A DNA stretch of 64,000 bases from Marsupella aquatica (taxonomy: Eukaryota > Plantae > Marchantiophyta). Under the pieces are notes generated by a model, which was not told where the DNA came from, made no database searches, and saw only the letters and a list, made by a program, of their open reading frames with translations. This document shows positions 6,031 through 60,432 of this stretch, one piece after another (the first letter of the stretch is position 1; every line of letters starts with the position of its first letter). Location: assembly GCA_973895155.1 (NCBI GenBank), contig OZ316894.1, forward strand, positions 14,647,680 through 14,711,679. The letters are read 5' to 3'. Position numbers and translations under genes: made by a program.

Positions 6031-6721
6031 ATCCTGGCCCAAGCAGGGTTGTTGTCGTGGAGCCTAGGAGGACTGGGGTGAAGCGCACCCAATCGCGCCT
6101 CGCCACGTGGCAACCAACCAATGAGGGCCAACATTGGGTTACCTCCTGCGATTAAGTAAACCCAACATACAAAAAGGGGGTCCAGGAAGTAATTTAAATA
6201 GAATGAGGGACAGGTTAGCAATTTTGGCCATTGTGGGGAACAAGTTAGTAAAAAATGGTACAAAGATTTGATTAGAATGTCATCAAAGTACAATTGCTAC
6301 TATACCTTAAATTTATCCCTATTAACTTCTCACTCAATCTTCTAGGTTTAAAGTTGTCTGGGGGTTTGTATGGTGCGAGGAAACAGGAGAAATTGACAGC
6401 GAGGTTATTGTTTGCTAGCAAGGTAAAACTAATGGTCAGAGTGGCAGATTGGGAGGATAGTGAGATTTCTACAACAGAAATGAATCTTTTTCTCGAATGG
6501 GATCATTCCATTTTATGTCTAGCGAGGTCGCTAGCCTTCAATCACTACAAACCATATGAATATACACAAGCAAGTAAAACACCAGGCGGATATGAAAAGG
6601 CATAGTGAATGAATGAACTCAGATTTCAAACCCGGTTCAAATACTGCCTCCAATACTTTGTCAAAACTGACAATAAGTTTGAGTAAATAGTGCAGGGATA
6701 TCCTTCTATTCCCTCAGAAAA

Positions 6722-9700
6722 TCATAAGTCACTTGAATGACTTTCATCGGACTCTATATCATTCCTACTACTAGTATTGCTCTGATCACTGCTGAAATCC
6801 CAATCAATTGACTCAGCAGACTCATCAACATATTGCTTAACAAGGCATGCCTCATCGTCAACAAAAGGCAAGCAATATAAATTTTGTCTGGCACCACGAT
6901 GTGACCTACGACCTTTGCCTTCCCAGGTGACTACAAAAGCATTATCCGACTGAATTGCCGACTTCTCTGCATAGCAAGGCAGAGTAAACGTCTTCTGAGG
7001 AGAAACAATGCAATATTCTTCAATCTTCCTTCAAAGCCAAAATCTCTCTTCCGAAAACCAGTCGAAACGAGTATCTCTGAAATCAGGAAAACAATCAGAG
7101 CACTATGAATGAAATATCCAATCAAAAGACAATAGAAAGCTTCACCAGCCAATTGATTAAAGCAAAGGGATCTGGTATAAGCGAGAGGATCAGTACATTA
7201 CTCCAGGTCAAATTCATCATCGCCATCTTTTGTATCAGGAATATTAGGAGCTCCATCTTTGTTTTTTCCACTCTTTGATCCTGCAAGAGAAAATTCATCA
7301 TCTGAATCGAACTCCTCCAATGTTTCAGTGAGGTCTTCAATTTTCTTGTGTCTCTCAAGAACACTCTTCAATGCCTTCTCTGCAGCACCATGGAGAACAT
7401 CCCTATCCTCGACCCCAACAACGAACCTCCCAAAGAGTTCTCCAGCTGAAAATGAACTACCGCCTCCAATATTCCAATCAAGCACAATGTCTCTATGCTT
7501 TGTGAGAAGCTCCATAACAGCCTGCATGAATCCAACAGACAACCAACAAGAACCGGAAAAAGCTAATTCTGCCCTTGTATCCCTTTTTGGATAACAAAGA
7601 CTCAACATTGTCTTATGTGATGCATCTTCAGACGTTGTCAGAGGGACATACTTCGGGTCTTTTGGGATCTTCCCATTGAATTCAACTCGACAAAAGACAT
7701 CCAGGCTTAAGTTGAAAACCTGGAAAAGAACAAAAAAACCTCAATTAATGAATCCAGGAAGGCCAGCGAGATCGCTGTCAAAACAACCCACTAAATCCTG
7801 AAATTTTCACTCAAATCTCACCTCAATGTTCATGTCTGGCATCCGCATTGGGGACCCCAATAAAACATGGTACTTCCGAAGGTGTTTAAATTTGTTTCTC
7901 TGTTCAACAGCAGCAAAAATTTGCTTTGTGTGGTTAAATTCTCCACTGTGGAGAACGGCCACATACCCATCATCGGACAACATGGGCCTCATCACTCCAA
8001 AGAAATAGTAAGGCAGCTTCTCAACCCAAACATTCCATTGGGGAACTTCCACATCAGTAACACGAGGCCTCAACCCAGTCGGAAGAGCAATGAACCCCAG
8101 ATGGGCACCGGTCCCAGTGTAAGGCTTCCCGTTGATTTTTAAGGGATTTGGGTGTTCGGAAGAACTTGAAATCTCGGCAAGCCATTGATCCCCCTCCCCC
8201 ATCCAAGAAGGTCGAACCTTCTTCATACTTATCGAGTCAGCCGTCAAACGGAGATTACTCTTTGCAAGAAAATGTCTTCTTCCATCCAACTGGAGTCCAT
8301 AGAGCCTCGTCACACCCTCTTGGATTGAAATTTCTTCCTCATCAGAATCTGACAACTCTTGAACCTTTCTCTTCTTCTTCAGCCTCTGGGACCCTAACTT
8401 ATCACCTCCCGGTTTAGTCACAATTTCAAAATCGGGTGACTCAGGCTCAACAAGATCCTCCTGACGACCATTAGTCACAGTCTGAACACTCTCAGAACCC
8501 AAAGACTTCCTCCTTTCTGGATACAAAAAGCAACCTAAGAGCCTCAGGATATGTCATGAACTTAATCAGAATAGCAGCTTGGGAGAGATAATAGAAGTAA
8601 GCTTTGGAGAGATGAGAGTATACTTACTTTTCTTTCCAGAAAGCATAGAGCCGTCTTTTGATACCTCCTTGGCAACATCCCTCTTCAATTTCCGAGGGCG
8701 GCTCCTATCAACAATCGGTGCCACCCCGAGGCATGCCTGCTCCATCGACACACAGCCAGCAATTTCTACTTCCGGGTTGCACAATTTAGATTCACTAATA
8801 AAATATTCTGGGACCAAGCCACGATTGATCTTTTGAAGCGCAGCTTTCTCTGTCACATCAAATGTCAGTGACCAATTCTCCGAATCTAAATACCAGGGAC
8901 AATGCAGCACCTCCCATTCACTTATCTTCCGCAAGGGTTCAATGTCCTCAATAGGGTACATCGAGTACTCCCCAAACTTCTCACAACCGGAATCATCTCT
9001 TGCATATTGCGCCCATTGAGAGAAACATGCCGGATAACACCACCAAAAAGATCTATTTGCCACCTCGCGATCAACAAAAAACCTGTAAACATACCTTTTT
9101 GCCCTTCGTTGAAAAGCAGCAATGTCAATCTTTTCCCCAACTTTCGGGTTCCAGATGCTCTTAAAGAACCTTACCTTAACCCGCTGCAGGAAATCCTCAA
9201 AGTCATCATCAATTTCAACGAGGGATGCTTGACTATTCTCTGGGGAAGAAAGAATTCTACATTCAGGGAGAATAATCTCAGAGATTGCTTCACTTAACAA
9301 GCACCTCGCAATGGACTCTACCTGTTCCCAGGTTTCCCATCGATGCAACCAGAGCTTGGTCTCACTATCCGAAAATTGAGATGGGTGGAAATATTGTTTA
9401 CGCAACTCTGGTCTGCACTGTGCTTTGAGAAGAGTGCAACAAAGTTGTGGACTCACAGAAGTTACCCCGGTGAAAAGCCTTGCACGATCAAGGCCACACG
9501 AAACATTCCCTCTCCCCTTATCATCCGTCCGCTGAGCTTCCTTCCTTTCTTTCTCACAATAATTGTGCATCTCAACACATTTCTTGAAGAAATCCCCAAA
9601 GTCTGGATTCAGAAGCGGGGCAAACTTTGGAACTTTGACATTCCAGTCAGAGAGTTGCTCCTTCATCATATCTCAAATGGCAATATCCTTAGCAGCTTTG

Positions 9701-10770
9701 GACAGAGGTTCACCAAGTTCCTCCTTCAATGCAAACTTCTTGAGTAAGTCAGCAGTTTGCGAAGCTATGTTTGCAGCTGAAAGAATATAGATGCATGCAT
9801 CTAAGGTCATTTGCTTCAAATACCAAGATGGCTTCTTCACATTTTGCATCTTCTGCTGAAATAACTTGAAATTCTCTGGATCAATTAAATCTTTGTAAAC
9901 TGAGAGGTCTGTGCGCAAAATCTTCTGGACCCGATCAGCTTCGAGCACCCACGAATTTTCAACATGGCATTGTGTCAACCTGCCATTGAGGATAGAATTC
10001 AGCAAATAGCAAGAACAAATCATGCTCGAAAATGAAGCAAAAACATCAAATGTGTCAAAGATCTTCTCACCGGTTGAGAGCATGCATCGCAGATTCAATC
10101 TGCACGAAAGTATCCTTCTCTCCTTTGAATATCTTCGAGACAACTCGAGGATGATATTTGACATCGTGAAGATTCTCAACAGCGAGTAGGTTCCACGAAT
10201 AGAGAGTGTGATTGCCATCGAATACACAAAACATTTTATCCTTGAGCACAGCAAAATCAGGATGCGAATCACCTCCCTCTCGAAAGCTTCATTCTGTGCC
10301 AACCACATTGGATCCCAGCTCTGTCTAATTGTGTCATTCAGAAACTGCACGTCCCCATTCTCATTGGTCATTTGCACATAAAAACGAGGCGCGTCCTCAA
10401 TGTACCCTTGAGCCCGGAACTCATTCTTCAAAGTCTCAATTGCATTCGAATCTGTCTGAAGAGACCTTACAAGCTGCATGTTCTGCATGCGACACAATGG
10501 AATTCGAGGGGGAACAAGAGGATACCCAAATTTGTTCGGCCCAAACTGGTAAAGGTGCCGGTTAATGACAACTGAGAAAGGCTCGGACTTGGCAGAATCC
10601 ATCGAAGGGGGCACAATATCCATGGGATCAACAAGCTTTCGCCTCCTTGGAGTCTTCAGCCCCGAAGCAAGTGCTTTGTGGCTCATAGAACTCCTGGTCT
10701 CTCGACGTTGAGAGGCAGCTGATTGTGAGGCAACGGACAAAATAGACTCAGGGGATGCAAAAGTTGCCAT
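6722..10770 (-). pseudogene. Five-exon ParB/Srx-like plus N4/N6 DNA-methyltransferase-like fusion gene, copy 1
   Basis: Exons about 10770-10071, 9979-8628, 8516-7822, 7719-7202 and 7075-6722 with GT-AG introns. ParB-like IPLCRM..VRSL...IETLKNEF..QGY...VFDGNH; MTase-like LLTKHRDIVLDWNIGGGSSF...FVVGVE. Frameshifts and stops present. Confidence 0.8.
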
Positions 10771-11799
10771 CAACTGATAAAGAGAGGAGAACCACGTGAA
10801 AGGAATGCAAGGAATTGGTACGGTTATTTGCAAAGGAATCCAAAGTCACATGTGTTAGGAATCCAAAGCAAGATTTCAGGGGAATCCAAAGCAACCCATT
10901 CTATGGTGTATCTGACATTGACAGGGAATATCAGTATTTAACACCTTCATGCCAAAGATCTGTCAATGAGAGCTATACAAATGTTAATCCCACCGGTGCT
11001 AATTAACGTTAACAAAGCACCAGTTAACGTTAACAAGGAGTCTAATTACTACTTACCAACAACTCGGTCAGATGAAATATACATTTGACTCCAACAGTTG
11101 GAGTCAATTACTCTCTAGTTGACCAACTTGGGTTGGGTATCCGTTGAAAGTAACCATTCTCCAAAATAACAAAATATGCCGATGGAAGTATGAACCAAAG
11201 TTTTTATAACATTTACACTTCAAAATGAAGTTAACCCTTCCAACGGTAATATAATTTTGACTGATTATGGGTCTTGTTGAGGCCAAAATGGACAAACTCC
11301 ATACTTTGTTTGAGACAAGTATTTAGACAGTTTTTTGCCAGCGATATCGCTGGCCAAATCACTGCTAATGGGGTAGGTTAAAAGTGAGGTGGGGTTATTT
11401 GAAATGATCCCTTCATTCTTTCCTAAATTCTTTCCTAACTTCTTCAAACCGTCAACTAATAGCCCAATGTTGCATGTGTAAACTATACTAATAGCCCATA
11501 TATTTGTTTCTATATCCCTCAATTGAACCCCAAAATCAAATAATAGTTTACCCTAAATTGGTGCTTCAGGCTAGCGATATCGCTGGCCTAATTCAGGGTT
11601 TTCAGAGGTTTATTTTATGGGACATCTCAGAATCCTCTACCCTGTTAATGTCAATTTGTAAGTGGAAATCATATTTAAGAATCACTAAAATATAGATGGT
11701 TGAAGATTAGAGTCTCCCTTAAAGAAAGAAAAGTTACCTAAATTATGTCTAGCGAGGTCACTAGCAAAAACTGTTGTTTAACACAAAGCTCCAAGGCTA

Positions 11800-12964
11800 G
11801 GCACACGACAAAATCCAGAGCTCTACTTCCAAGGGAATCTGGTGGAATTTGTGAGGACCTACAAATACCTTGGGGTGGAGTTCTCTCAAAACTTGAGTTG
11901 GGCCTCATGTGTAAAATCTAGGGCTGCCAATGGGTACAGAGCTTTTTATGCATTCATGAACAAATGCAAAAGAGCTGGTCTACACACTTGGAGGTTAAGG
12001 AAACATCTCTTTGGAGCTTTGGTGAAACCAGACATTCTTTATGGAGCACCAATTTGGGGAGCAGGTGTGTCTAAATCTGGGTGGCAACAGATTGAGGGGC
12101 TGCAAAAGCTATTTCTTGAGATGGAGCTTGGGATCAAGTCACAAACCCCATATGCACTTACACTTGCAGAGGCAGGCTTGTTTCCTTTGGAGGTGGAGGC
12201 ACTCTTCCACACACTCAAATACATCATGCGTGTAAGAGAGTTGGAGGAAAACAGATTTCCTTTTCATGCCTTGCGCTCATCTTCAGCTAAAGGGTGGTAT
12301 GCAGATGTGTGCAGGTGGGCCCATGCTTGGGATTTTCCTGAACATGAATGGCCAACACACCCAACCAAGCTAAGAGCAAAACTTGAGCAAAAGGCTTTGC
12401 ACAAACTTTGGCATGAACCTAGCCCACGGCAGCAATACTACATGAGAGATGTGAACCCCATGAAGAAATATCGAGAACAAGAATACTTATCTAGCACTAT
12501 CTCAGTACAACTTAGACAACTTATTGCTCAGTATAGACTAAGCTCACACCACCTTGAAGTAGAACAAGGGAGATGGAAGGATATTGACAGGAAAAAGAGG
12601 GTTTGTCAACTATGTGATAGCTCTAGTATAGAGAATGAATATCATGTATTCATTGCTTGCAAGTTTTATGAGGGGGTTAGGATGGTATCTCAAATCTTGG
12701 TGAAAGATTTGTATGCATTGTTTGGTCTGCCCCCTCAGCAACTTGGAAGATATATCTTTGCGGTGGATAGGGAAAGGAGAATAGGTTTGGAAAATCTTTC
12801 AGGGCTCTCTAGGTCCATAGTTTCTTTGAGGACATAGTTGTCCTCTTCTGAGCAATCTCTTTTGGTTGCTCTTTTCTTTGATTGCATTGTACTTTACTTT
12901 TTGTGGCAGCTCCTTTGACTTTCATGGTCCCGGAGCTTATAATACATTACCATTACCATTACCA
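11800..12964 (+). mobile_element. 5'-truncated RTEX-like LINE, family A
   Basis: ORF 11842..12837 is nearly identical to the other family A copies; 3' UTR then (TTACCA)x3. Confidence 0.92.
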
Positions 12965-13243
12965 ATAATCCTTTACTTTACCCCAAGTATACTCCAAGTT
13001 CAGTAAACATCCTACTACAGCCCAAGCTATCCTTGTTATCAACATTAAATAGGCAATTTTTGGAAAATTACCAGATATAACTTTGGATGACAAGGACCTC
13101 TTTATAATAGCAAATTTAGGCCAGCAATATCGCTAGCAATAATTCATTTCTTGAAGGTTAATGAGCCGTTGAAGTTTTGTTGTATATGCAACGTTAAACT
13201 GGCATTCCATTTATTCTAAACTTTATTGTCCTAATATTATTCT

Positions 13244-33345: not shown

Positions 33346-33354
33346 GAGGTTTTT

Positions 33355-33382
33355 CTCCGTGACAGGAAACTGGAAATAGTAA
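33355..33382 (+). repeat. Left subterminal inverted repeat CTCCGTGACAGGAAACTGGAAATAGTAA
   Basis: 27/28 match to the reverse complement of 54406-54433; extra ACAGGAAA units follow. Confidence 0.9.
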
Positions 33383-33903
33383 CAGGAAACAGGAAAACAT
33401 AACAGTAAAAGAAGACGGGGTTATACTCTGAACATTTGCCATCCATCAATAAAAATAGGGTTCAAGAGAACAGTTATAAAACGAAGTTCAAAAGTAAAGC
33501 CTGAGAAAAATGGCTCCATGTATTAGTAGCGCCTGGAGCTACTACAAAAAGTGGTGTCACAAAATCCAAAACATCCAAGAGGTCGGGTAAGAACAAACTA
33601 ATCCCCAAGACACTCATTGTCATTGACATACAACTCGGTCTATACTAAACAAAGTCCGAGAAACAAATCCGACTAGTGAGTGTCATTGTGGAATAAAAGC
33701 TATGCAAGGTGACGATACCTCTTACAACTTTAAACTCCAGAATATGTAGAGATGTCGCGAACAGTGAATTGACTTAACAACTAAAAAGCTGTATCCTACA
33801 AACTGAACATCCCGAACAAACAAAATCCTATCTCCTTTGTTCTTAATAGCAATAGCGCCGGGCGCTATCTATCACGAGAGTGTACAAAAAGACTTCCTAA
33901 AGA

Positions 33904-34374
33904 TCAGGATGTCGATGATCCACACTCATCATCGAGTCCTGCATTGAACCGATCTTCATCTTGACGAAATCCATCCTCCCGCTCATCAAAAAAATGCGGC
34001 CCTGGAAGGCAACTCCTAAGCTTGCAATTCGGTATGTTCAAATCAGAGAATCCAACTCGCCCAGTCCACTGTTGAATGTCCCTAAAAAATTGCGTCCTTC
34101 CAACCCCATAGTGATCAGAAGGGTCCGGATCGTGAATAGAGAAACGCTCTCGAATAGACCGGGGAGGCGATAAATGAGCAGAAGGAATAGATTTTGATCA
34201 GAAACTTATCCCCTCATCGGAGGCTAGCCACAATCGATTCCGCTCAGTTGATGTCTTAGAGTGAGTAGTATCTTCAATTGGGAAGTTTGCAAACAGATTG
34301 CCATCCGATGCTTTGCCCTCAAACTTTGCGAGGCGGGAAGTCCTCTCTTGTTTCACCTGCTTCCCTTTGTCCAT
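33904..34374 (-). pseudogene. Small conserved third gene of the MULE (unknown function), one internal stop
   Basis: MDKGKQV...ERFSIHDPDP...GRVGFSDLNIP matches MDHGTKV...ERFTIHWPLP...GRIDFQNTTIP at 59137-59567, in the same position relative to the MTase gene. Confidence 0.55.
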
Positions 34375-34863
34375 GGTCACTACACGAATGACTTTTAGTC
34401 TCTCAATGACTTTTAGTCTCTCAAAGGACTTGACACCGAAAAGCGCAAATGGCGAAGGCCTCCAAGAGCTCCTACAAATTGTCGAAAGGAGAGGGACAAA
34501 AGGGGAGAGTCTAAATGAAATGACTAACGATGCAGTTTCGAGAAAGGAAAAAGTTTCCATTTCAATCACGCATACAGAGAAAACGCCAGTCCATTGAGAT
34601 CAATGAGTACCACAAGCAATGACATTACGGAAGGGAAACGAACACTTGTATGGGTACTTCCGTTGAATTAAGTATTTCAGTACATTTGTCCTCCTGAAAG
34701 GATATACGGAACATCATACATTGCCCACCTTGTCTTAATCCAGCTTCACGTCATATGAATAATAAGTAGCGTCGGGAGCTACTATTTTGGAGGGGGGAAT
34801 TGACCAAACGGTGAAACTCTAATCTAATCTAATCTAGTGTAATCTAATCTAAGCTAATCAAAT

Positions 34864-37800
34864 CTAATCTGCACACTCTGACCCACTACTCTTCGATCTA
34901 TCTGTAGACTCTGCTTCATCGTCTACAAATTCATTCCATGCCATGTCGTCGACAAAAGGATGATGGATAAACTTCCGATCTGAACCTCATCTCAATCGCA
35001 AGCCTTTATTCTCCCAAGTCAGCGTTCTCCCACTCTCTTCTTTGCGAGCGGCATACTCGGCGTAGGAAGGCAATACAAATGGTTTCTCCGGGGTAATGAG
35101 AACCTTCCTTGAAAATTTCCTTTGTAGGTGAAACCTCTCGCGAATATTCCACTCGGACCTGCGAGTTGGTTAGAACATTAAGTACGTGGCTTTCATTGAT
35201 GTGTCTGAAACAAAACAAAGAAAACAAATAGTAAAGTAATGTGAAGGAGCTTACGGGCATTACTCCGAGGAATCTGAATCATCCGTTTCTCCTTCTGCAT
35301 TCCCCTCTTCCTTCTTCTCCTCTACATTATCTACATCTTCACCACCATCCACATCACCAACATCGGCTTCTTCTTCTTCGGAATCAAAATTAAGAACATA
35401 ACGAACTTTGTCCTTAACTTTTTTCCCCTGGTCTTTGCTCAGACCAGCGGCACTCACTTCTTTGGGGAGAAGAAGATCATTGAATGTCTTTTCAACAATG
35501 GACACAAATTCCTTGCGATTTTCAATCCCAAGAATGAAATGGCCACAGAAGTCACCCGCAACAAATGTGCTCCCAGAACCAACCGTCCAATCCATAACAA
35601 TATCTCCCGGACGCGTAATTAACTCAAGGACAGACTGCATGAAGCCGACAGGCAGACGAGCATTCCCAGCAAATGCACCTTCAGGAGAAGGATCATTCTT
35701 GAGACTTTGCAATCCAATGAGATTTGTGATTGAAGGGTCTTCAGTTACAGACAAAGGCTTGAACTTTACATCCTTTGGAACCCTGACTTTCGATGTAACC
35801 CGACTGAAGATGTTAAGTCTTAAGGTGAAAACCTGTGAATTGAGCAAGAAAAATGAGATATATAACAAGGGATATGGGTAGCGCCTGGCGCTACCAAAAA
35901 GCTAGACGGAAAATAAAGACTTTAACCCTAAACTCAATACCGTGAAATTGAATTTATGACTAGCGCCAAGCGCTAGCCAAAAAGAAAATCAACGATGAGG
36001 ATAATTACCTGACAATCGCTTCTGGCCATGTACATTGGGACGCCCATTACAACGTTGAGTGTTTTCAGGCATTGGAACTTCTGGGACTCTTGGCTTGCGG
36101 AAATAACTTGGGAGATCTGGTCGTACTCCCCAGTGTGCAAAATTGCTAACAATCCATCATCGGCTCGAAATGGGTCCATGGCCTGGAAAAAGGAACCTAC
36201 AATTTGGTGATCCGGGACATTCCACTTTGGCGACTTCCGGTGAAGCAAAGAAGGTCTTAGCCCCATTGGTAAATACACAAACCCCGCATCTACCCCAAAC
36301 GCTCTTAACTTCCCTCCCCTTACAACGCCTTTCTCGCAGAGACCAAGTGACACTAAGTCTTTCCCCCACTTTTCAACAGTTGTCACCCATGCGGGTTTGG
36401 TCTCATTTGTAAACACAGATTCAAAAAAGTCCATAACACTGGACTCAACAAACTTATGGCGGCTAACCTTTGAATTGAATCGACCAACTTCTCGTTGGAC
36501 CCCAGTGGACGCAATCGAACCAAGATCGTGGTTCTTCTTCTTCTTTTTCCTTGTGCTTGTGGCATCAACAGGACGAGATACGTTGGCATTGGTTGGAGGA
36601 GTTTGTTCTTCCGAGGCGTTAGCAGCCTCCATGTTTGCTTCGGAGAGCTCTCGGGTGATGGTCGTCTTTGCATCTTGCGTTTCTTCTCCCTCTGATTTTC
36701 TTCCCCCTGTAACAAGTATGAATAGAAATTAATTAAGGAAAATATACCAGCGCCTGGCGCTAGCCATCCAGAGTATCCATAAATTGTAACAGAATTATGA
36801 GTATCTATCTAACATTTCAAAGTAGCGCTTGGCGCTAACCAAAACTATGAAAAAAACCGGAAGAACAATAAGTTGAACATCTTACGTTTTCATCCAGATC
36901 GTGTCGACGGGCTATTCAATCCTGTATCCATTTTTACTTTTGCACGTGGCTTTTGGCTTCGGTCAACATGTGTGACTTCTGTCTCGCAAATTTTTTGAAG
37001 CTCAACCACTGAAGCTTCCACATCTCCCACTAAACCTTCCTTCATTCTGACAACAATTTGCAAGGAACTAGAGATTTGGACAATTTCAGAAAGGAGTCTT
37101 TCTCAAATTCATCAAAAGGTGTATCCCACTTATCAATATCGAGGTACCACGGACAGTTTGCTCTCTCCCACTCAGAAATGTCACGCGGAGGGTTGGCTCC
37201 ATCTGTCGGATACATACTGTAAACCTCGCTGAATGCATCCCCATCCATGACGGACCACTTCTGGAATGCAGGAGGGTAAGCCCAAAAGTATTCAGGCGAA
37301 ACGCTCTCCATGGACATGAAGAACCGATAAAGATATCTCTTTGCCCGCTTCTGGTTTCGTGTAGTGAAATCTTCTTTCTCCCCATACTTTGAAGCCCACA
37401 TTGTGTTGAAGAACTTGGCCTTCACAGTATCTCCGTAAATTCTGAAATCATTACAAACGCTCTGGACCAAACCATCAAAAGTATCTACTCCTCCTGTCAC
37501 GAGTCGTTCGGGAGGCATGATCGATTCAACTTGCCTGAGAGCAGTCTGCAACATCCCTATTGCAATTCCTTCTATCCAACTCCACATGTGCCATGTATGA
37601 CACCATTGCTTCACAGGTTCGTCATTCACACTAGGTGGATGGAAAAATTGTTTTCAAAGTTCAGGTGTGCAATGTGCCACAAGGAGAGTAGAACACAACT
37701 TCGGATCCAAAGCGGAGACAGCAGTGAAGAGTCAAGCACGATCCATTGTACAAACAACGGACTCTGCTTTCCGTTCCCGCTTGTTCTTTTCTGTCAGAGT

Positions 37801-39025
37801 GTACATTTCTGCACAAGTTGACAGAAAATCATTGAATTCAGGACTCAGGAGAGGAGTAATCTTTGAGGTCTTCACGCTCCATTCCTTCGTGGCCTCCTTC
37901 ATCATCGCTGCGTGACGCTTAGCGACCTCCTCTTTTGACCATGGCCGTCCTTAAGAGTTTGCGGTTGCCATGTCCATTTTGAATTGGAGAGAGTATGACT
38001 TGATCTTGTTCTCACACAAGATGTAAACAAGAGCCTCCAAAGGCATCTTCTTGGTATACCAAGAGCCTTTCCTTGTCTTCGCTCGAATTGCCTCAAATCA
38101 TTTGAAGCTTCCTGTGTCAATGATTGCCTTATAATAATCAAGGTCATGGGACAGAATCCGATTGATTCGATCTGCATCCAAGATCCATGACGGTTCTACC
38201 ACGGCTTGTCCCAATCTGAAACCAAACGGAAATCATCAGCGCCAGGCGCTAGCCAAACATCGACAAAAGTATTCATTATTTTTTACATTCAATGAAAGAA
38301 AATGATGGAACTTACTGATTGACTATGTGCATTGCAGCTTCAATCTCGATGAGAGAGCCTCGATCTCCCTTGAATACAGTGCAAAGCACACGAGGATGGT
38401 ACTTGATATTTTCGGGGTTTTCGTCCGTGATCTGTAACCAGGAATAGAGACGATGATTCTCGTCAAATACACAAAACATCTTGTCTTTTAAGACGAGAAA
38501 ATCGGGATCCATTTCGCAGCCCGCTTCAAATTTCTCATTCTGGGAAACCCATACAGCATCCCAACTCTCACGAATTTTGGGTGTGCAGAATTGGATAACC
38601 CCTTCAGAATCAGCGGGTTGAACATAGAACCGCATCCCTATGGAGGAGTTGTAACCGGAACTCCGAAATGAATCTTTGAGCTTCTCGATCGAAGCGTTCT
38701 CCTTCTGCAAAGTCCGGACGACTTCCATGTTGACTAAGCGGCAAAGCGGTATATAGGGGGGATCCTTAGGCTCTCCTCTAAAATCAGTCCCAAACGACAT
38801 CGCATGTTTCGCGATCACATCACCCATCGACAGAGCCCCTTCACTTCCGTCCTCCATCACGAAATCGCTGAAATTCTCCATGGCTCCTTGTTTCTGCTTT
38901 GGAACTGTCTGCCCAATATGTCAAAGTGACTGCGATGCAATTGAGCGTGTAACTCTTCGAGTGTAAACAGAACCAGAGAATGAAGTCTCGGATGTCTCAG
39001 AATTACCGGGAGAAGTATTGTCCAT
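34864..39025 (-). pseudogene. Five-exon ParB/Srx-like plus N4/N6 DNA-methyltransferase-like fusion gene, copy 2
   Basis: Exons about 39025-38316, 38215-36886, 36706-36009, 35832-35264 and 35158-34864. IPLCRLVNMEVVRTL...VFDENHRL; GVDAGFVYLPMG; ELITRPGDIVMDWTVGSGSTFVA...ILGIENRKEFV. Intron positions match copy 1. Confidence 0.85.
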
Positions 39026-39678
39026 CTCTGGATAAAGAGTAGAAGGCGGTAAGGTTTGGAATGTTCTCAACCAATCGTAGAGGTCTGCAACGTTATCCTG
39101 CGACTGGATAGATGAGCTCCACGTCGCAAACAGACAACACGGAGCACGTTCTTTCCCGAAAGACAGAGAGGACAGCGAATCTTAAAACATGATCAGACCT
39201 ATCGAATTGGCCTTTCACATGTAAAAGATCCATCAAAGACCGTCGATCAACTTAAATATTTACTTTTCATGATGAAAAGAAACAGCAAAAAGAGCGACGA
39301 CACCAACAAGAAAGAGACACATGTCACATGTTCTAAACGGTCATGATCAATAGAACCAAAATTTTCTAAATGACGTCTCTAAATCTTTGCCACTTTAGGG
39401 ATAAAACGGTCACTAAGGTATGAAGTTACCATTATAAATATCCGTTGAGTCACAACAACGGACAAGCATGTATAATAGCGCCCGGCGCTATTATAGAAAT
39501 TACACCTAAATCACCATAAATTTTCATACATTTCTATAATCACGCTCGGAGATATTAAGGGCCCTTACCATAAAATAAGCCCACAACATAATAGCACCCG
39601 ATGCTATTATTAAATCATTTCTGAAATGTCATTTAACTCCTTAAATACAACAATGGTCGTAAATTTCTTTGCTTTTTG

Positions 39679-42600
39679 TGTTGAGCATAGACGACATTCG
39701 CAACGGCAAGCCCATGAACCATCCAACGCACAATAGTCAACACAGAGAGATACATGGTTCACCTCCACATGAGGCTACGTCCACGGGAACACACAAGAGC
39801 TTTACTGCACTCTAGGCCGACCGGCCATACCAAGCATCCATAGCACAAGCTCTCCCTATCTCTCAACTAGCTCCGTAACAATGAGCCTAAGTTCCACCAA
39901 CGTCTGGCATCAGCCCTGGCTATATGCACACCAGCACTACCGCTAACATTAGCTAAGTCCTAACCCGAGTTAGACTAACTGTGGTTAGTTCATGAGTCAC
40001 AAGACTAGAGCAATATCTAACAAACTCCCCCTTGACTCTTGTCTTGGGGACTAGACTAAATGCTACTATATGGAATCCTCAACGGGAAGTTCTAGACAAT
40101 CACCAAACCAGGTCTCCCCCTAAAAACCACAAGGGTTAACTAGAACTAAGCCGTAGCCTAACAGGAATGAGTAATCCATATACAAATAGTCACACATTGC
40201 TAAATAACTCTACTTGCACTACAACTGCAAAACCTGCAAAGTAGCACGGTGTCTTGAGCAACTCTCCACAGGAATCACTTTGGTAAAGGCATCAGCGGGA
40301 TTGAGCTTTCCATCAATCTTGACTAGCTCAAAAGTTTTATCAGACACTGCTTGCCTGATAAAATGGTACCTGATATCAATGTGCTTCACCCTACTATCCA
40401 TCACCTAGTTAGTAGCCAAGTGAAGAGCACTCTGACTATCACAGTTTAGAGTCATTTTGCCATGCTCTAAACCCATCTCCGCGATCAACTTGTCCAACCA
40501 AATTATTTCTTTTGCTGTTGCAATATACTCTGCTTCTGTAGTAGACTGAGATATGCACTTCTGCAAGGTAGATTTCCAACTAATACATCCTCCTCCAAGA
40601 GTGTATACAAACCCAGTTGTAGACCTCCTTGTATCCAGACAGCCTCCATAGTCAGAATTTACATAGCCAACTAACGTTCTATCTGATCTATTATCAAATA
40701 GTAATCCATAGTCTTGTGTTCCCTTCAGATCCTTGAGAATCCACTTCACAGCTTCCCAATGTACCTTCCCTGGATTTGACATGAATCTGTTGACCTAGCC
40801 CATCGCTAGGGCCAAGTCAGGCCTAGTACAAGTCATCAAATATATCAGACTGCCTACTACCTTCTCATAAGGAATCTTAGCCATCAAACCTTTCTCCACA
40901 GCATCCGTAGGAGAGAAAGCCGATGATAACTTAAAATGTGAAGCTAAAGGAATACTCACTGACTTACAGTTCTCCATGTTGAATCGTGCAAGTACTTTCC
41001 TTGCATACTGGCCTTGACTCAAGCACAACTGTCCAGTCTCAGAGTTCCTAAAAATCTCCATCCCTAAGATCCTCTTGGCTTTACCAAGATCCTTCATCCT
41101 GAATTTAGCACTCAATTTTGCCTTGAGATTGTCAACCTCAGATTGATCTTTAGTCACAATAAGCATGTCATCCACATAGATTACCAGAATGATGAAACCA
41201 AATACATCATTCTTGACTGATTTTGTATACACACAAGGATCATACACCATCCTTGTAAAACCTTGAGCAAGCATGAAATCATCCACCACTTGCTGACCTC
41301 TTGGAAGCTCCACCAGCTCCCATGTCTTGTTGTCACTCAAAGATTGTAACTCCCTTTGCATTGCTACATTCCACTCATGCTTCTGCTCTGAAGCACAAGC
41401 CTCATTGTACGAAGAAGGCTCTCCTTCTTCCAAGATCAAAGCCATGTCATCATCATCAGGTGCAATGTCAATATCATCTAGCTTAGATGAGTCTGCCCAT
41501 TGACTATACCTGGTAGGAGCTCTAGTAGAACGACTAGAAGTTTTTCTAGTAGATGACTCAGGCTGATTTGTTGTTGCTGCTGGTTAAATTTGAGGTACCC
41601 CAACAACAATCTGCTCCTCTTGTTCCATCACAGGAACCAGCTCCAAGCCCAGAGCTTCTCCATCTCTCCTGTCATGAACTGCATCATGACTAACCTCCCC
41701 TTCAACCCGGTCCGGGATGAGAGATTTCCCCTTGTCAGTATGGGAGTCTTGAGAACTCTCCCCCTCCTTTGATGATCTGGATTCATTAAAGGACACATCT
41801 CGACTGACAATTAGCTTACAGGGTACTGGATCCCATAACCTATAACCCTTCACACTTTTTTGATAGCCAAGGAAAATGCACTTCTTTGACTTGGACTCCA
41901 GCTTGGATCGCAGCTGGGAAGGTGTAAGCACATAAGCATCACATCCAAAAATCCTCAGATGTGAGTAATCTGCTGGACGCCCGTACCTCATTTCAAATGG
42001 CGTCTTGAATCCAATAGAACTGGATGGAGAAAAATTTACCAAATAAGCTGCAGTGTTGACAGCTTCAGCCCAAAACTCATGTGGTAAGCATGATTGACTC
42101 AATATACTCCTCAAGCGGTCCAATAGTGTTCGGTTGAGTCTCTCAAAAACACCATTCTACTGAGGAGTATAACTTGTTGTGAGACGGCGGGTAATCCCCT
42201 GCTCCTTACAATATGTCACGCGATTGACATGGGTCTTAACACCAAAAACGTCACTATGGGTGCCAAAACCATCTCCTTGTACCTGAGGATCACGAAGGGA
42301 TGTTGTGAATGCCGGTAAACACCAGTTTATGCCCTTAACACCAGACTATCATAGCAAGACTCTATCACACATCACCCAAGCTCAATCCCAAGGAACCGAG
42401 GTTGGGGATCAGATCTGTGCTCATGATAGTTCTGGTGAGAAGGGGTCTTCATATCGGGCCCGTACACACAGGGCCTAGCGCTACGGTGCGCATAGGTCTA
42501 TACATATGCTTACTGTCATAGGTATGTTTCTATTCTGCCGCCGGAATGTACCCATAAACCAGTGACTCCTGACTGATTCCCGGCTTAGGGACTTCTAAGC

Positions 42601-45600
42601 CATTGCCCCACCACTCTGCCATTCCACTCTCAACAATCAGAGCTATGACAGTCCTCACCCAGCCCGCTTCAATGCACCCGGTACACCTCTCAGTGGCGCT
42701 ACTAGTTCCATCATACACTCAGATTGCCTCACACACACACACATCCATGAGAGAAATGAGGCCTGAGAGGAAAACTCAATTAGATTCAACGATGTGCACA
42801 ATAGTTCACTAAGAACACTTGATCCGAACAATAGGCCCGAAGGCTGTCTACTCCAGATTGCAGCGTGCTTGCCCCGCAAGCCCCATGCTTGCCATGCAAG
42901 CTCAATCCTGAACCTGAGCCCGGCTCACTCCAGATTGCGACGGCATATTGGACTCAAACCAATCCCGTACTTGCCTTGCAAACTCAATCCTGAACTCAAC
43001 CTCCTTCACTGCACTTCATTCTTGGGGGCACATACAGATCTCACACCTCCAATTCAGAACGTCAAGTTACGCATACATAGTTGACTCGACTTCAAAGCTG
43101 GTACCAGGCCTAATGGCGATCTACCCCAGACTGCAATGAGGCCCGGCCTCACGCTTGCCCTGCAAGCTCCGCTCTGGCCATAGATCCCTTAGTGCTCTCC
43201 ACCAGACAAAGGCCGGGACTCCCCATGGATCACGTAGCCTTGCCAGACTGAACTGTAAATGCTCCTCCTGCTGCCCCTCAATCAGTGTCTCAGCCTCCCT
43301 AATGTGCTCACCACAAATCAAATTGACATCCTCCCCACAGTTTACAATCACCAATACATCACCTATCACCAAGGCTCTGTATCGGGGGAAAAGAACCCAG
43401 TTGTGCTACTCACTAGAAAGAGCCACAATCCAGTTCGCAAACCTAGCAACCCGTTGCTGTGAAGCTTGGCTGATTACTCCCTGAGTAATAGCACAACCAA
43501 GCTCTCCCCAACACGCAGCGTCCAAGTCCAGCCTTGCTTGCACAGAGCTCCTCCCTGCTGCTCAGTCTAAGTGAGATCACACAACTGAAGTCCCCCCCTC
43601 TGCCTCTACCGGAGGGATGCTCTATATACTCTCTCATTGAGCCCAAATGGGTGGATGCTACGCTGCTGGAGCCCCATCCCAGCCCTAATAGAGCCGCCAC
43701 TATCTCTAACTACTGAACCCTAACTCGCAACTTTATTTCTATCTCGAATTGGCTATGTACTTCGGATTCGGCCCTCCTCCATAGTTTTTGCGAGCTTGCG
43801 CCTCCTCTCCCGATTTCTCTATTTAACCATTTTCTGCGTGGATAGCAACGTTGGAAGCGGCTTGAGCTCCTCTTTCCAACGAGGTCAATTATAGCCGATT
43901 TGGTCAAATACACAGAGAGTTATGCCCCCGTAACCGAGAGGGGGTACTCACTGTTGCGCTAACCCGAGTTACATAGCTAACCCGAGTTCGGCTAACCTAG
44001 CTATCCTATCTAACCCGAGTAGAGCTAACCCGTGGTCTCGGGTTAGGCCGTCACCCGCTATCCGCTATCCACTATCCTAGCCTAAGCTGAGCCCGAACCC
44101 GAGCTTACCTATGCTAACCTGACCCCGAGTTAAGTCTAACCCGGGATCAATCTAATCCGAACCCGGGTTAAGCCTAAGCTGAAGCCGTGCTTACCTAAGC
44201 TAAGCTGAAGCCGTGCTTACCTGAGCTAAGCTGAAGCCGTGCTGACCTAAGCTAAGCTGAAGCCGTGCTGACCTGAGCTAAGCTGAAGCCGTGCTCACAT
44301 AAGCTAAGCCGTGGTCGAGCTTGGGTTAACCCGAAACTGAAGCCGAATCCGCTAATTCCGGCCACAAGTTAACCCGTCACACTAATCAGGCCGTATCTTT
44401 CTTAATACACCTCCGTTTCCTGAGTGTTTTATATCGATTTTACTCGCCTTGACCAGATCTTTCCAATGCTCTTTACAGATCCGGATTTGGTGACATATTG
44501 AAAGAGATATGGTCGCCGACCACCTGCGACATAGCTTTTATTTCCCTACTCTTAACGCCATGATTGCCCTTATTCTTGCCATCTTGCTAATTGTTATGCA
44601 ATATCAATAGCTACTCCTTGCATACAGCAACCTACTTAATCAGATTACAAAATAAGGACCATGTCATTGGCGTCACACAATACATTCTAAATTCCCCGGA
44701 ACTGTATTCACCGCCGTTATCCGATCAAAGATATCTCATCTTATTACCAGTCTGATTCTCAACTTGGGCTTTCCACTCCTTAAAAGTGACAAAAACATCA
44801 GACTTACTGTGTAGAAAGTATATCCACACATACCTTGAGTAATCGTCAATGAACGTGACATAGTATAACCGTCCAGAATGTGAGGGAGTAGAGGCTGGAC
44901 CTCACATATCACTATGTACATACTCAAGTACCTCCTTGCTGGTGTGAGTTCCAACTCCGAAGGGTTTCCTGTGCTGCTTTCCTAGCACATAGTACTCACA
45001 AAATTCCAACTTACAAGATTGCAAATTAAAAAGTACTCCTTTCTTCTAAAGAATAGCCAAACCTTTTTCACTCATGTGGCCCAAACAGAAGTGCCATAGC
45101 CGGGCCGTCTCCTCATGAGATGAGGTTATATTGGCTTCATCACAAACTACACTGCCCTCCAAAACGTATAGATTGCAATGTCTCTTTCCTTTCAATACAA
45201 CTTTAGTACCAGTTGAAACCTGAAGGACACCATTAGCAAAACTCCACTAATGGTCATTTGCTTCTAAAACTCCAAGTGAAATGAGATTTTTCATCATGCT
45301 GGGAATATGTCTCACATTCCTCAACGTTCTCATAGCACCATCAAACATCTGAAATCTTACAGATCCAAGTCCAACAACTTGACATGGGATTCCATTTCCC
45401 ATCAACACTGACCCATTGGAAACCGTGTAAGAACTGAAACAATCTCTCTTAGAGCAAATGTGAAAAATACTTGCACTATCTAGAATCTAGTCATCACTAC
45501 CTGGATTTGACACTACGTTGAGAGCATAACCTTGACATCACAATATGTCATCATCATTGAGTAAATTTACCTCATGCAAGCTCGATGCCGCGTTAGCAGA

Positions 45601-47592
45601 TGCAGTAGGGACCTTTACTCGACAATCCATTTTCATGTGGCCAGGCTTGCCACAATTCCAACATGCAAGAGGCTTCCTCTCTTGCGATTTCCCTCTGGAT
45701 TTAGATCTCCCCTGTGATGTAGATCTAAACCTATTCGGCCCATTTGTACGTTGCGCTACTCTCCCACGGTTCACGTTCAGCGTAGTGCCAGAAGAAGATG
45801 CTGTCTGTGATTGACCCAACTTCTTCTGAGCATCATTAGACAATAATGAGCTCACCACCGCATTATACGAAATGGACTTCAGATCTCTATACAAGAGCAC
45901 CTGTTTCAAGCCCTAATATGACGGCGGTAAGGAGCTTAGCAGAAGCAAGGCCTTATCCTCATCTTCAACTCCTTTTCCTAGGTTTGATAGATCCACCGCT
46001 AGACTGTCAAATTCATCCAGGTGATCCTGCATCTTGCTCCCTTCCTTGAGCCTGAGGCTCATCAAGAGAGACTTCTTGTACAGCCGGTCTGACGCATCTT
46101 TCCGGTAGAAGCTCTTAGAGCCTTGAACAATGACGCGCAATCCGCATAATCATCCAGCTGCTTGATGATGTGCGGCTTGAGATATAGCATCACTGCATTG
46201 ACAACAATCACCTGCTCCTGTCTCCACTGCTTCTCTGAAATATCCTCCTCTCCATCATACTACTCTCGCGATGAAAGCAAATGAGCTAAGCCCATGGCCC
46301 GTAGAACACCCTTCACTTGCTTCTCCCATAGCAAGTAAGTAGTTAGTACGACCATCGTACTTCTCCACCTCAAACTTCACTCCTCCGAATCTAGCCATCT
46401 CCCTCTTCTTCCCTACTACGGATAACTCTGGTAGTAGTACAGCTTCCTCCACTGCACGTCGCATCGGTGATCGTGGTAAGTGAGGGAGCCGGGTGTGTGT
46501 ATACACACACAAGACTCCTTTAACCCCTTTAAAACAAAAAAATAACCCCAAAATAAAATTTGAGTTCTCACCTTAAAAAACCGCTATTTACACTAAGGAA
46601 AAGATGAGTGCCAACGGTCCAAAGTTGCCAAATTTTACCGGTTAGGTTTGCAAGCTCCGTAGTGGGAAAAACTTTCCGTCGTGTCACACTCACTCCGTGT
46701 CAAGTGCCAATCCCGGGCTCAAAACGACCGCCTTGCCGCGATCAAAACATTGAGTCGTAGCACTTCGCGTTTCTTCCACCGAGTCGTATGTCACGAAGAG
46801 AAACCCGGTTCAGATGTGAACAAGCTCCATAGCTTGTAAAAAAACCTGAACGCCTCCGTCACTTGTCACGTCGCACTCGGTAACAACTCGGTAGCAATCC
46901 AGCTACCGAAACGACCAGCTTGCTTCAACCTTCAACTTGAGCTATAATGTGTGATCCCTCCCGCACCGCACAGCTCACATCGTTGAAAAACGCAAACTCT
47001 GGTCTCTCCCCCGAAAAGCTGTCGAATATGAATAAACCCTGAATGATGCAAACTTCAATTCCTCCGCACCACTGATATCGATCAGCAAGTTCTAACCACC
47101 GTTAGAAAGTCCTCTCACTAACCTATCCTCATAGCCACACACATTCGAGTTTCATGCGACGAAACTCTAAATGTACCATCAACAATGAACGCTGGAAAAA
47201 CCTGTCACAAAAAACCCCGTCACCTCCCAGGCATGCTTTGATACCACTTGTTGAGCATAGACGATATTCGCAACGGCAAGCCCATGAACCATCCAACGCA
47301 CAATAGTTGACACAGAGAGATATGTGGTTCACCTCCACATGAGGCTACGTCCACGGGAACACACAAGAGCTTTACTGCACTCTAGGCCGACCAGCCATAC
47401 CAAGCATCCACAGCACAAGCTCTCCCTATCTCTCAACTAGCTCCGTAACAATGAGCCTAAGTTCCACCAGGGTCTGGCATCAGCCCTGGCTATATGCACA
47501 CCAGCACTACCGCTAACATTAGCTAAGTCCTAACCCGAGTTAGACTAACTGTGGTTAGCTCATGAGTCACAAGACTAGAGCAATATCTAACA
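39679..47592 (-). mobile_element. Full-length but decayed Ty1/Copia (Tork/Tnt1-like) element nested in the MULE intergenic region
   Basis: 344-bp LTRs at 39679-40022 and 47249-47592 (about 10 mismatches by eye); TSD TTTTG; PBS TGGTATCAAAGC; PPT GGGGGAGTT; gag CWNCGKPGH, integrase, RT YVDDML with internal deletion, RNase H. Confidence 0.95.
42214..44677 (-). mobile_element. Solo LTR (2464 bp, probably Ty3/Gypsy) nested in the Copia integrase
   Basis: TG...CA ends; 5-bp TSD CAATA; internal ~23-bp tandem repeat 44170-44310; inverted near-copy at 51948-54378. Confidence 0.88.
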
Positions 47593-47970
47593 TTTTGGAC
47601 ACGTAAATATGTATTATTAATAATAGCGCCAAGCGCTATCAATGTTGTGGGTAAATATATATCTCATCTTGTTGTATTTTTGGGTTCATCTCCACATATT
47701 GTGTGGCATGAAAAAAGAGATTTTTGCTAGCACTCGACGCTACTAATATCCATTGCTGAAGATGCCGTTAAACTAACGGAAACATTTTTATTCCAACGGT
47801 CATCCGCTGCCATTCTTTGGTCACTTTTCCATTGCATCAACGGTAATTAAATTGGAATTCGACTTGTCGTATGGTGGTTTCTTTGTTGAAGTTTCTTAGA
47901 AGCGGTGAAAGAAGAAACTAAAACTATCACGACACTCTCATTTTACCATTGTGGTCGATGATATTCCGCA

Positions 47971-50900
47971 ATGCAGCGTGTAATTAGAGTAAGTTGTTCG
48001 GCGACAGGTGAGGTGATTACCGTACTTGTGACCAATCGACCAGGTACTCAATGCGTTAGTGAGAATTATCTTTCCACAAGATTTGATGTCCAAAGGAAAG
48101 ATATTGATAATTTAGGTACATTTGCTGGTTGTACAGCTCATTTCCATTACAATCAAGGAGAGAAATTCTGGGAGTTGCATATTGGTGTTGATTACTCTCT
48201 ATACCTCAAAGGAAAAGATGATGTTCGTGTTAAATTACAGAAGGTAATTGCACCCAGGGAAGTCATCGATCTCACATCTGAAGGCGAGGACTCATTCCTT
48301 GGATCTCCTTTTTCGATGGATGTTGGAAACATTAAGAGAGAAGAATCGGTTCCAGTACATCAGGGGAGCTCATCGAAGGAACGGGTTCCTCCAGTTTTTC
48401 CAGGATTGAACAAAACAATTAGTGGATCTGATACACTTCTTTTAGCTCTGCCTGTTACTGTTGTCTATAGGCGAAGCGCGTTAGATGCACTTTTGAAATC
48501 ATCTGGACAAAGTGAGCTTTCTCGCTTTGTTAAATCGGAGGTTTTCACGCACGAGCAAGTGGAATTGCTTCCCAGAAGTTATAATGGCATTGTCATATTT
48601 GAGCTTCCACCTGTTGATTGTGTCGGTTCAATAGGAAAGCGTCTCCTTAACATGGACCGGTCAAAGGATTGCTATCTATGGACTAGAATTTTCCCCACTT
48701 CAACCAAGGTCTTACCTAAGAAGATGTGGGAGTTTGGCAAGGTTAGTTGTAGCGGGTCACTAGAATGTCGAAACAATTCATGCGAGTTTTATATTAGAAC
48801 CAATGGTAGGAATTGTTCATCTTGGGAAGGGACCCCTAAGTTAGGAGGTCAACATTGTCCAGGAAAGTTGATTGATGCAGGAGGGATTGTTTGTCGTTAT
48901 TGTCTGCAGCTCCCATTTTGTGTGGACTCTTGCCCCGCAAAAATGTTTTGCTTGATTCGGTGATAGTGCAACATATGTCACGCCTCGCAATCCACATGGG
49001 TGTACATAATCATCCATGTCGAAAGATTTGGTCTAGAAGTTCAGAGAAAATAGCGGTCGAGGAGATTCGAAAAGAGCACTTGAAGAATCCTTCTTCCGCG
49101 CCTTGTGTTGTAAAAAATGCAGTCACTGGATCTTTGAAGGATGCACTAGATGAATCTGTTCATGACATTTCAAAGATGGAAGAGACTGAGATTTGGCAGT
49201 CACTTATGCTTGTTTCCACTCCACAGAAATTCTCTGCCTTGTTTAAGAGCGTCCGAAAAGATCAGGCTGGTCATGGAGATCTTGAATATCTGGTTCGAAT
49301 GCAGAAGAATGTGAGGTTTCCATTTGTTCAAAGGTATCTTCTTCCGGGGCAAGGCTGTAAGGAAGACCGTGCTCATATTTTCAAAATGACAATCAAAGGT
49401 CATGGATCCGGAGTCGATCTACTTTGACAGATGAAAAAAGGTGGGCCACTTGAAGGAGCATGGTGAGTTTTGATGTCATGCATCGAATGTCTAAAGAATG
49501 GAGCACTTTCAGTGCCCACGTCTATGACCACAACTATCGAGTGTTATGTACAATATTTACGTGCAAGCTGAAAGCAGAGGACACTGAATCTCTTGAGAAA
49601 GCTTGGAGATTGATGATTGAGGTCGCTTCAGAAAATGGGTTACATGATGTTCAAATTCACGAATTCATGGCTGACAATGCTCATGCGGGATGGCTTGCGG
49701 TGAGAAATGTTTTCTTTGGGGGCCATCCAAATCCAGAGAAGGAGAGATCAGACGCTTTTCATTTTTACCAATCTTTGCATCGCCATTCCATCGAAGGAGT
49801 GTTGGAAGACAAACGTGCAGAGCATCGAACCCTCTGGGATAAGCTCAGAAATGCATCAACTTTTGTTGAAGCCTATAGAATCTCCAGAGAGATTGATTTA
49901 TGGTGGAGATCCGGAAATTGCGTTCCTGGAAAGCTTCGGATGCTGCAAGGATGGATCTCTTGGTGGGTTGTAAGATGGCGGCAGTGGGGAAATTTTATCA
50001 GACTTGTGAGTATGACATTGACATGGCCTTTTCATTTTTCAATATCTCATATACTTCTAAACTAGCGCCGAGCGCTACTATTAAGACTCTATTTTGCTTA
50101 ATTCTCTTATCCTTTTTGACAACGCCCGACGCTACTTTTAATTTGTAAGTATTGATAAATAATATCATCACGTCTTCCAAAGTAATATTCGAGATTTGAC
50201 CAACCCTCGCCGTCCTGCAGAGCAAAAGTGCACAAGGAGGGATGATTCCAAATTGCACAGGATCTGAGGCAGTTCATGGTATCATGAAAGCTTGGCAAGG
50301 GAAGAAAACTATAGGTTTATTTGAGGGGTGCAAAACTGACCACAATCGAGCAATCTCCCAAATTGCCGCCTATACTGTCTATCGTGATGGGTTACATAGA
50401 GGTACAGGTCCTATGGTTTTTGAACTAGCTTTCCGTTTTGCAGATCAGGCTGGGTCCCCTCGATTGTTCGAAGAGGCTTCTAATTTTCTACTAGCTAATG
50501 CGGCGGAATTTGATTTGGAGAGGAGTTCTCCATTGAACGATGATTTTGTAACCAAATCTGTCAAAAGAAAAGGTCCAGCGACAGGGAATGTCTCGGCACA
50601 AGACTCCCATCGTCATGACACTATTCTGATAACAACACCAAATACACGGGGTTTGAAACGGAGAAATCTGAACTCTACTCAGTTTTCTCATATTCCACTT
50701 AGTACTCCTCAAACACCAATCGATTTGACTGGGAGTGAAGAAGACCCGGGTGACATGCAGGATGCACCTCCTTCTGGTCGAGGTGGAGCATCTTCAATAT
50801 TACCAGAAGTCTTTTTTAACCAAAATCCAGTCGTCCCTGACACGTCGCTTTTGGAGATGGACGTTGATCCCGGTTCTTGGCATCTTCGTCGAATTTTAAG

Positions 50901-51726: not shown

Positions 51727-51947
51727 GAATTCTGACCATTCTAGTAGACGTTGAACGGGTATTTAGTCAATGATGTTTTGTAACGGTAACAAACATTTGG
51801 GTAGCACTCGGCGCTAGTAAACGTGTCTTCCGACAATTGTTGTTTTTCCCATCATATTGGACTTCATGTTGAAATTGACCTCATTGGTTTTGTAGAGAAT
51901 TATGCCATGTTTTGTGGATGATAGTACCAATTCTCCTATTTTGTTCC

Positions 51948-54378: not shown

Positions 54379-54405
54379 GTTCCACTCTTTTTCCTGTTAT
54401 GATCA

Positions 54406-54433: not shown

Positions 54434-54442
54434 GTCGGGCCC

Positions 54443-60420: not shown

Positions 60421-60432
60421 GGATGAGAATCT

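Follow-up and report, generated by a model that had tools for sequence, protein, structure and literature searches.

Transposon copies and palindromes in the window

The window (the whole stretch of DNA analysed, 64,000 nucleotides of contig OZ316894.1 of the liverwort Marsupella aquatica) contains three copies of a minus-strand gene, gene A, which were located by tblastn and which mark three elements, copies 1 to 3. These elements are members of a multi-copy DNA transposon family, and they carry short palindromes with AGCG/CGCT half-sites of two types, with a 4-bp spacer in copy 1 and a 5-bp spacer in copies 2 and 3. There is no fourth gene A copy in the window, the segment 30274-30837 scoring only E 0.12 with the gene A profile. 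A broken minus-strand gene at 27400-31100, split by an RTE insertion, contains a stretch that looks ParB-like by eye (ISGQHS); it has no match to the gene A profile and no repeated palindrome nearby. The features of copy 1 are as follows (LINE, long interspersed nuclear element).

6090..13243, copy 1, belonging to a diverged subfamily and present as its left part; the left boundary is approximate
6520..6533, 4-bp-type site TAGCGAGGTCGCTA, downstream of the last conserved exon; its position matches that of 34767 in copy 2 and 60058 in copy 3
6725..7077, minus strand, extra conserved exon, with homologs at 34867-35162 and 60125-60418; either a separate gene or an alternative last exon
7198..10771, minus strand, gene A, four exons with bounds set by eye; frameshift near 10280
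7764..7777, 4-bp-type site, inside gene A (intron 3)
11339..11352, 4-bp-type site, upstream of gene A; often with an ACAT centre in other family members
11572..11585, 4-bp-type site, likewise upstream of gene A; none of the variants listed (40 of 82) falls here
11750..11763, 4-bp-type site; its mismatch at 11760 is nearly private to the copy 1 locus, nearly all aligned contigs having the consensus base
11796..12971, plus strand, RTE-like LINE fragment inserted in copy 1; contigs from other copies jump over it (joints from 11795 to 12972, 12979 or 12982)
13122..13135, 4-bp-type site with one mismatch, at a CpG; joins the same upstream region in contigs without the LINE

Copy 1 is cut by insertions at 13244, and no transposase, terminal inverted repeat (TIR) pair or target duplication of copy 1 was found in the window; it is classed with the Mutator-like element by gene A homology only. 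Contigs from public sequencing runs span copy 1 from ~6090 and jump over the LINE at 11796-12971 (their summed depth is not a copy number), indicating that the 13122 site belongs to the element and that copy 1 represents a multi-copy family. The extra exon lies downstream of the gene A stop in all three copies and ends in F(V/I)DDxAE, with no significant family match.

The features of copies 2 and 3 are as follows (ORF, open reading frame; LTR, long terminal repeat).

33346..54442, copy 2, whole Mutator-like element; its TIRs are imperfect, and the duplication of 8 bp, GATTGAGG, is at 33338 and 54443; sits in a LINE ORF
33527..51816, fifteen 5-bp-type sites of copy 2, at 33527, 33853, 34767, 35879, 35961, 36748, 36823, 38237, 39476, 39592 (3 mismatches), 47624, 47728, 50063, 50120 and 51802
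35260..39100, minus strand, gene A of copy 2, with in-frame stops; start approximate
39679..47592, LTR element nested in copy 2
47973..51726, plus strand, gene B, broken MULE-type transposase, divergent from gene A
51948..54379, solo LTR within copy 2
55743..64000, minus strand, copy 3; the left TIR-like end at 55743 matches copy 2; broken by LINE insertions and running past the window edge
58658, 58716, 59112, 59899 and 60058, 5-bp-type sites of copy 3
60125..60418, extra exon of copy 3
63562..63999, last gene A exon of copy 3

Mutator-like elements typically make target duplications of ~8-11 bp. The copy 2 TIRs carry a different repeat, CAGGAAA, and no palindrome, while the outermost palindromes lie 181 and 189 bp inside the element ends.

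The preliminary description had reported six 4-bp-type sites in copy 1, and all six are present. Specifically, the pattern YAGCGANNTCGCTR has 6 matches with at most one mismatch in the 64 kb, all in copy 1, compared with a mean of 0.17 and a maximum of 2 in 100 shuffles. The cores at 6520, 7764, 11339 and 11572 are exact, and those at 11750 and 13122 have one mismatch each. The common form is YAGCGA-NN-TCGCTR, and all six sites lie in the non-coding DNA of copy 1. Copies 2 and 3 contain only a form that is longer by one base, TAGCGCCNGGCGCTA. The corresponding pattern YAGCGCYNRGCGCTR, which like YAGCGANNTCGCTR was derived from the sites themselves, has 22 matches with at most two mismatches (shuffle mean 0.84), which are divided among copy 2 (14), copy 3 (5), two copies of one LTR (2) and position 22630 (1), with none in copy 1, where the best 5-bp-type match has 4 mismatches. 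The two LTR matches, at 42469-42483 and 54109-54123, have a single mismatch and occur in both copies of one LTR, of which one is inserted in copy 2; they reflect either chance or a motif borrowed by the LTR element. Two 4-bp-like matches in nested LTRs, at 39932 and 47502, lack an ANNT centre and were for that reason not counted.

A plain search for AGCG-N(0-11)-CGCT in the window returns spacers of 4 (four times) and 5 (eleven times) only. Half-site counts give GCYAGCGA with a 2-bp centre for copy 1 and RNTAGCGCC with a 1-bp centre for copies 2 and 3, indicating that the two types differ in spacing, in base 6 and in the outer flank. The earlier statement that the types share the AGCG/CGCT half-site and differ by a 4-bp versus a 5-bp spacer is thus borne out and extended. 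Its spacer consensus for copy 1, AKRT, stands as to the terminal A and T; the strict KR centre does not, and ANNT replaces it because ACAT is common in the copy 1 family.

All 6 sites of copy 1 and all 15 of copy 2 are non-coding, although non-coding DNA makes up 39% and 28% of the respective elements (exon bounds were set by eye, and one nested boundary is 44 bp off). In copy 2, sites are present in the transposase intron and in each of the three introns of gene A; in copy 1, intron 3 is the only gene A intron with a site. Consistent with the preliminary description, intron 3, which holds the 7764 site, is the equivalent of the copy 2 intron with 35879 and 35961. A tandem-repeat origin was rejected, as no tandem array overlaps any site (0 of 24 tandem-repeat rows in the window), and a structured RNA family was rejected for want of an Rfam match for the sites.

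Palindromes of this kind could also function by folding, as hairpins or cruciforms, when the DNA is single-stranded or in RNA; the spacer would then be a loop of drifting length. We consider this very unlikely. The arm sequence itself is conserved beyond pairing, many sites are intergenic, no Rfam family matches, and the six 4-bp-type sites lack within-site complementarity at their variable positions. Folding is equivocal, with 5 of 9 folded sites at z <= -2 and the other 4 no better than z -1.7. Slight support comes from the 5-bp-type sites, in which the base just outside the arms is complementary in 11 of 19 cases compared with 5.5 expected (p 0.006, uncorrected, with 13 positions tested).

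Two further motifs lie upstream of gene A. In copy 1, positions 11085-11107 form a perfect palindrome of 23 bp (arms of 11 bp) that has no relation to the AGCG sites, and CAACGG/CCGTTG clusters, which we take to resemble MYB/MSA cell-cycle elements, occur in copies 1 and 2 (11141, 11241, 13166, 39442, 39456, 47794 and 47838).

Proteins encoded by the element

Gene A comprises a ParB-like domain, a helical domain and an N6/N4-methyltransferase-like domain, and is encoded on the strand opposite the transposase. Its named homologs, among the 20 of 105 matches that were looked up, belong to Calypogeia fissa and Riccia sorocarpa. The first exon is similar to Atlas clusters of DUF3723 and ParB_N, the nearest named clusters holding DUF3723 in 31-47% of their members. 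An AlphaFold model was obtained for the Riccia homolog P0107 (60 sequences; predicted local distance difference test score, pLDDT, 71.5). In a VIA fold search with this model, the top 12 rows are all ParB, Noc or KorB (Z 6.8-7.8), and 11 of the 12 cover model residues ~10-400, corresponding to the CTPase and DNA-binding domains. Specifically, 206 of 209 residues align with KorB at a root-mean-square deviation (RMSD) of 5.0, and 187 of 187 with 6t1f_D at an RMSD of 4.5, while sulfiredoxins cover only residues 20-170. Foldseek is in weak agreement, with ParB-family proteins in its top 4 rows (E 0.05-1), and a viral fold library, which gave no match at E 0.001, has mostly ParB/Spo0J among its highest-probability rows. 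The nucleotide-binding motif of ParB is GxxR, and the segment DGNHR is retained in 7 of the 8 homologs that hold it. On the basis of the homolog model, gene A is predicted to encode a ParB CTPase domain and, after it, a DNA-binding domain of the ParB type.

The last exon matches PF01555 (N6_N4_Mtase) in copy 2 (E 1.2e-7), copy 3 (E 9.5e-7) and, weakly, copy 1 (E 0.11), with the S-adenosylmethionine-binding motif I region near the C-terminus, and its best matches in the PDB are DpnA and CcrM. Beta-class N6/N4 DNA methyltransferases carry the catalytic motif (D/N/S)PP(Y/F/W). At the presumed motif IV position, placed by eye with no solved methyltransferase aligned to that half, the six sequences read YLPM, ALPT, DLPT, DIPT, DMPT and HLPS; none of the six is canonical, which makes methyl transfer doubtful. 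Judging from these residues, the gene A product is probably not an active methyltransferase. Marchantia DN4MT1, unlike the gene A family, retains a TSPPY motif (bioRxiv 10.1101/2021.02.12.428880). The variable centre of the sites, together with the degenerate catalytic motif of gene A, led us to reject a reading of the palindromes as methylation targets (GATATC or CCNGG).

Profile searches of solved structures returned nothing for the ParB part or for the first half of the methyltransferase-like domain. A tblastn search of P0108 against phages gave no match, and scans of viral contigs, metagenome contigs and prokaryote genomes contained no related loci. Word-index protein searches for relatives yielded one near relative and none among longer proteins.

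Gene B, the second gene of copy 2, has 21 of its 30 Atlas matches in PF10551 MULE clusters (best score 0.91) and no match in Pfam, so that support for its MULE identity is moderate. A single-sequence model of the transposase fragment is poor (pLDDT 51.8), and a fold search on that model is meaningless. A small broken minus-strand gene is shared by copies 2 (33904-34376) and 3 (59114-59469), with 37% identity over 57 aa; it was not detected in copy 1 and has no family match. Its product is possibly another candidate binder of the 5-bp-type sites.

Site type and protein relatedness

Copies 2 and 3 have 56% identity in one of the two shared gene A exons and 60% in the other, whereas copy 1 is 39-41% identical to both copies. 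The site types follow this division without mixing: 4-bp-type and 5-bp-type sites number 6 and 0 in copy 1, compared with 0 and 19 in copies 2 and 3, which keep the same 15-mer despite their protein divergence. The preliminary description had proposed that protein and site diverge together, as in ParB/parS or VANC/motif pairs. The unmixed tracking of protein relatedness by site type agrees with this proposal, as does the analogy with ParB/parS, given the predicted ParB fold with its DNA-binding part; a VANC-like array does not, as the sites are not tandem. Protein/site co-divergence is plausible from these comparisons.

We surveyed the copy 1 family in contigs aligned to 11290-11795 (35-50 per run, from four runs, two organism codes and two studies). 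The 4-bp spacing holds across the family in these public contigs, and none of the 8 indels listed falls inside a site. Some diverged contigs match only in 30-50-bp islands at the sites, in order (joints 11364-11563, 11593-11718 and 11364-11718). In a helical-domain tree, for which 33 of the 115 rows with a match were kept at 70% overlap, copies 1 and 2 fall in an unresolved radiation and are surrounded by at least ten deep lineages; the tree therefore neither supports nor tests congruence.

These data bear on an explanation without any cognate element protein, in which host factors read the sites, or local duplication or conversion plus drift spread them within each lineage. Certain site pairs are as alike as if copied (22 of 23 bp for 6513/11743; 21 of 22 bp, inverted, for 11570/13116), arms show at least as much variation as flanks in close copies, and a 5-bp-type site with one mismatch also occurs in an unrelated LTR. 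However, neutral spread fits poorly with a 15-mer that is unchanged between copies 2 and 3 at 56-60% protein identity, and with CpG-rich sites that persist in CpG-poor non-coding DNA (observed/expected CpG in copy 1 of 0.99 versus 0.33, although in copy 2 only 1.21 versus 0.86), while two site types in one genome would require two host factors. We consider this explanation quite unlikely.

Candidate loading sites for a ParB-like protein

We propose, with somewhat better than even confidence, that the palindromes are candidate parS-like loading sites for a dimer of the element's own ParB-like gene A protein, and that the copy 1 subfamily has shifted both the site and the protein predicted to read it. 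The sites are far above chance, unmixed and non-coding, the homolog model has a ParB fold, the TIRs carry a different repeat and no palindrome, and similar proteins of algal transposons are proposed to bind their own element; all of these support the proposal.

Several observations weigh against it. The Z values of the fold search are below 8, middling by the tool's scale, the modelled fold belongs to a distant homolog and not to the window copies, and GxxR is lost in both window copies (DENHR and DGNHT), both of which are decayed. There are three elements only, for which congruence has a one-in-three chance, and co-divergence is therefore not proven; shared descent alone predicts congruence, whichever protein binds. 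Arms are no less variable than flanks in close copies (varying positions number 5 of 36 in the arms and 33 of 464 elsewhere, as counted from the 40 variants listed out of 82), and in one run 11759 C>T reaches 695 of 1026 in depth. This variability may be explained by CpG decay, as 21 of 27 deviations in the 5-bp-type sites are C>T or G>A, as methylated-cytosine decay would give. Depth peaks at the sites are partly cross-mapping among paralogous sites (a loose end at 11587 matches the flank of 13122). Finally, the symmetric subterminal sites of copy 2 (181 and 189 bp) also fit a transposase.

Alternatively, the MULE transposase could be the protein that binds the palindromes, as internal sites for pairing the ends or for self-activation, with gene A merely travelling along. 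Besides the symmetry of the outermost sites, a Mu transposase of Arabidopsis needs no partner to bind DNA and activate its cognate copies (bioRxiv 10.64898/2026.08.24.746577), and the divergence of the copy 1 transposase is not comparable because that gene was not seen in the window. In the same study, however, AtMu1c peaks fall at TIRs, whereas the TIRs here hold a different repeat and the majority of palindromes lie deep in introns; moreover, the element encodes a protein with the predicted fold of known palindrome binders. We regard the transposase as an unlikely reader of the sites.

If the palindromes are loading sites for the gene A protein, its dimer would load there, close on CTP and spread over the ~11-kb element. 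Few sites would thus mark the whole element in cis, keeping it expressed against host silencing or helping to pair its ends. The methyltransferase-like domain would not be enzymatic but would instead bind DNA or methylated bases, and subfamily-specific sites would keep one subfamily from helping another.

Among bacterial systems, the likeness is to ParB/parS, Noc/NBS and KorB/OB, and consists of the predicted CTPase and DNA-binding fold, GxxR in the homologs and multiple palindromic sites. KorB slides from OB sites with CTP, and OB (ATTTTAGCGGCTAAAAG) shares TAGC/GCTA arms with the element sites, possibly by chance (PMC11790492). The present case differs in that the transposon is eukaryotic and has no ParA, and in that its protein has large helical additions and is fused to a methyltransferase-like domain.

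By domain description, the closest parallels are algal. Sola1-1_Ec32 of Ectocarpus encodes, on the strand opposite its transposase, a single 1104-aa protein that likewise fuses ParB-like and N4/N6-methyltransferase domains and is proposed to bind and modify its own element (PMC12477816). It is from a brown alga and the Sola superfamily, and the available text names no binding site, whereas the element here is of the Mutator type, the catalytic motif of its protein is degenerate, and a candidate site is defined, with two variants. In red algae, Plavaka and Mutator elements also combine ParB-like and PF01555 domains on DNA transposons, in PAG2 (PF01555 and SET) and PAG3 (ParB and 2-oxoglutarate oxygenase), with tandem inverted repeats proposed as ParB sites (bioRxiv 10.1101/2025.02.11.637652). 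There, two genes are involved and the tandem arrays lie beside PAG3, as far as described in the portion available; here, one fused gene accompanies single palindromes dispersed through introns and intergenic DNA.

The VANDAL elements are likewise Mutator-like, with an accessory protein, VANC, that binds short family-specific motifs in non-coding DNA (introns, intergenic and terminal); both binding and demethylation have been shown (PMC5735166). VANC motifs are described there as 8-9 bp, non-palindromic and tandem, in contrast to the dispersed 14-18-bp palindromes and predicted ParB-like protein of the present element. The element of copies 1 to 3 is not a VANDAL; it is VANDAL-like in layout and ParB/parS-like in predicted chemistry. 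A lead only is provided by DUF3723, near whose Atlas clusters the ParB-like exon falls and which represents conserved cargo genes of another kind of mobile element, the fungal Starships; these are tyrosine-recombinase elements, with no palindromic site described in the part of the source available (PMC9156397). General background is given in PMC4738411, PMC9156397 and PMC12973397.

ParB-methyltransferase accessory proteins are thus already known from algal transposons, and motif/protein co-evolution from VANDAL; what is new is a likely example from a land plant, in which the candidate site is defined and has two variants. No description of the element or motif in bryophytes was found in the literature searched, whose coverage left most subscription papers outside. 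In the portions of the cited papers that were available, binding of a eukaryotic transposon by its own ParB-like accessory protein is a prediction, and a sharp candidate site in two variants with matching proteins provides a ready specificity test.

A fuller picture, which is tentative and which we doubt more than we favour, is that liverwort Mutator elements run a eukaryotic ParB/parS system, in which a CTP clamp would load at palindromes, including those in introns, and coat the element against silencing, with subfamilies made orthogonal by a one-base change in spacing. If so, a bacterial CTP clamp would operate in the plant nucleus, offering one answer to how a protein at few short motifs acts across a whole element. 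The ten or more deep protein lineages would form a natural library of clamp/site pairs, and the family would be a second, independent case of protein/motif co-evolution beside VANDAL.

The window also contains a very young RTE-like LINE family with ATTACC tails, whose members at 3750-4983, 11800-12965, 28256-29489 and 62560-63435 are 99-100% identical, several of them interrupting transposon copies. A 181-bp tandem repeat in four copies, at 14344-15063, adjoins a copia element.

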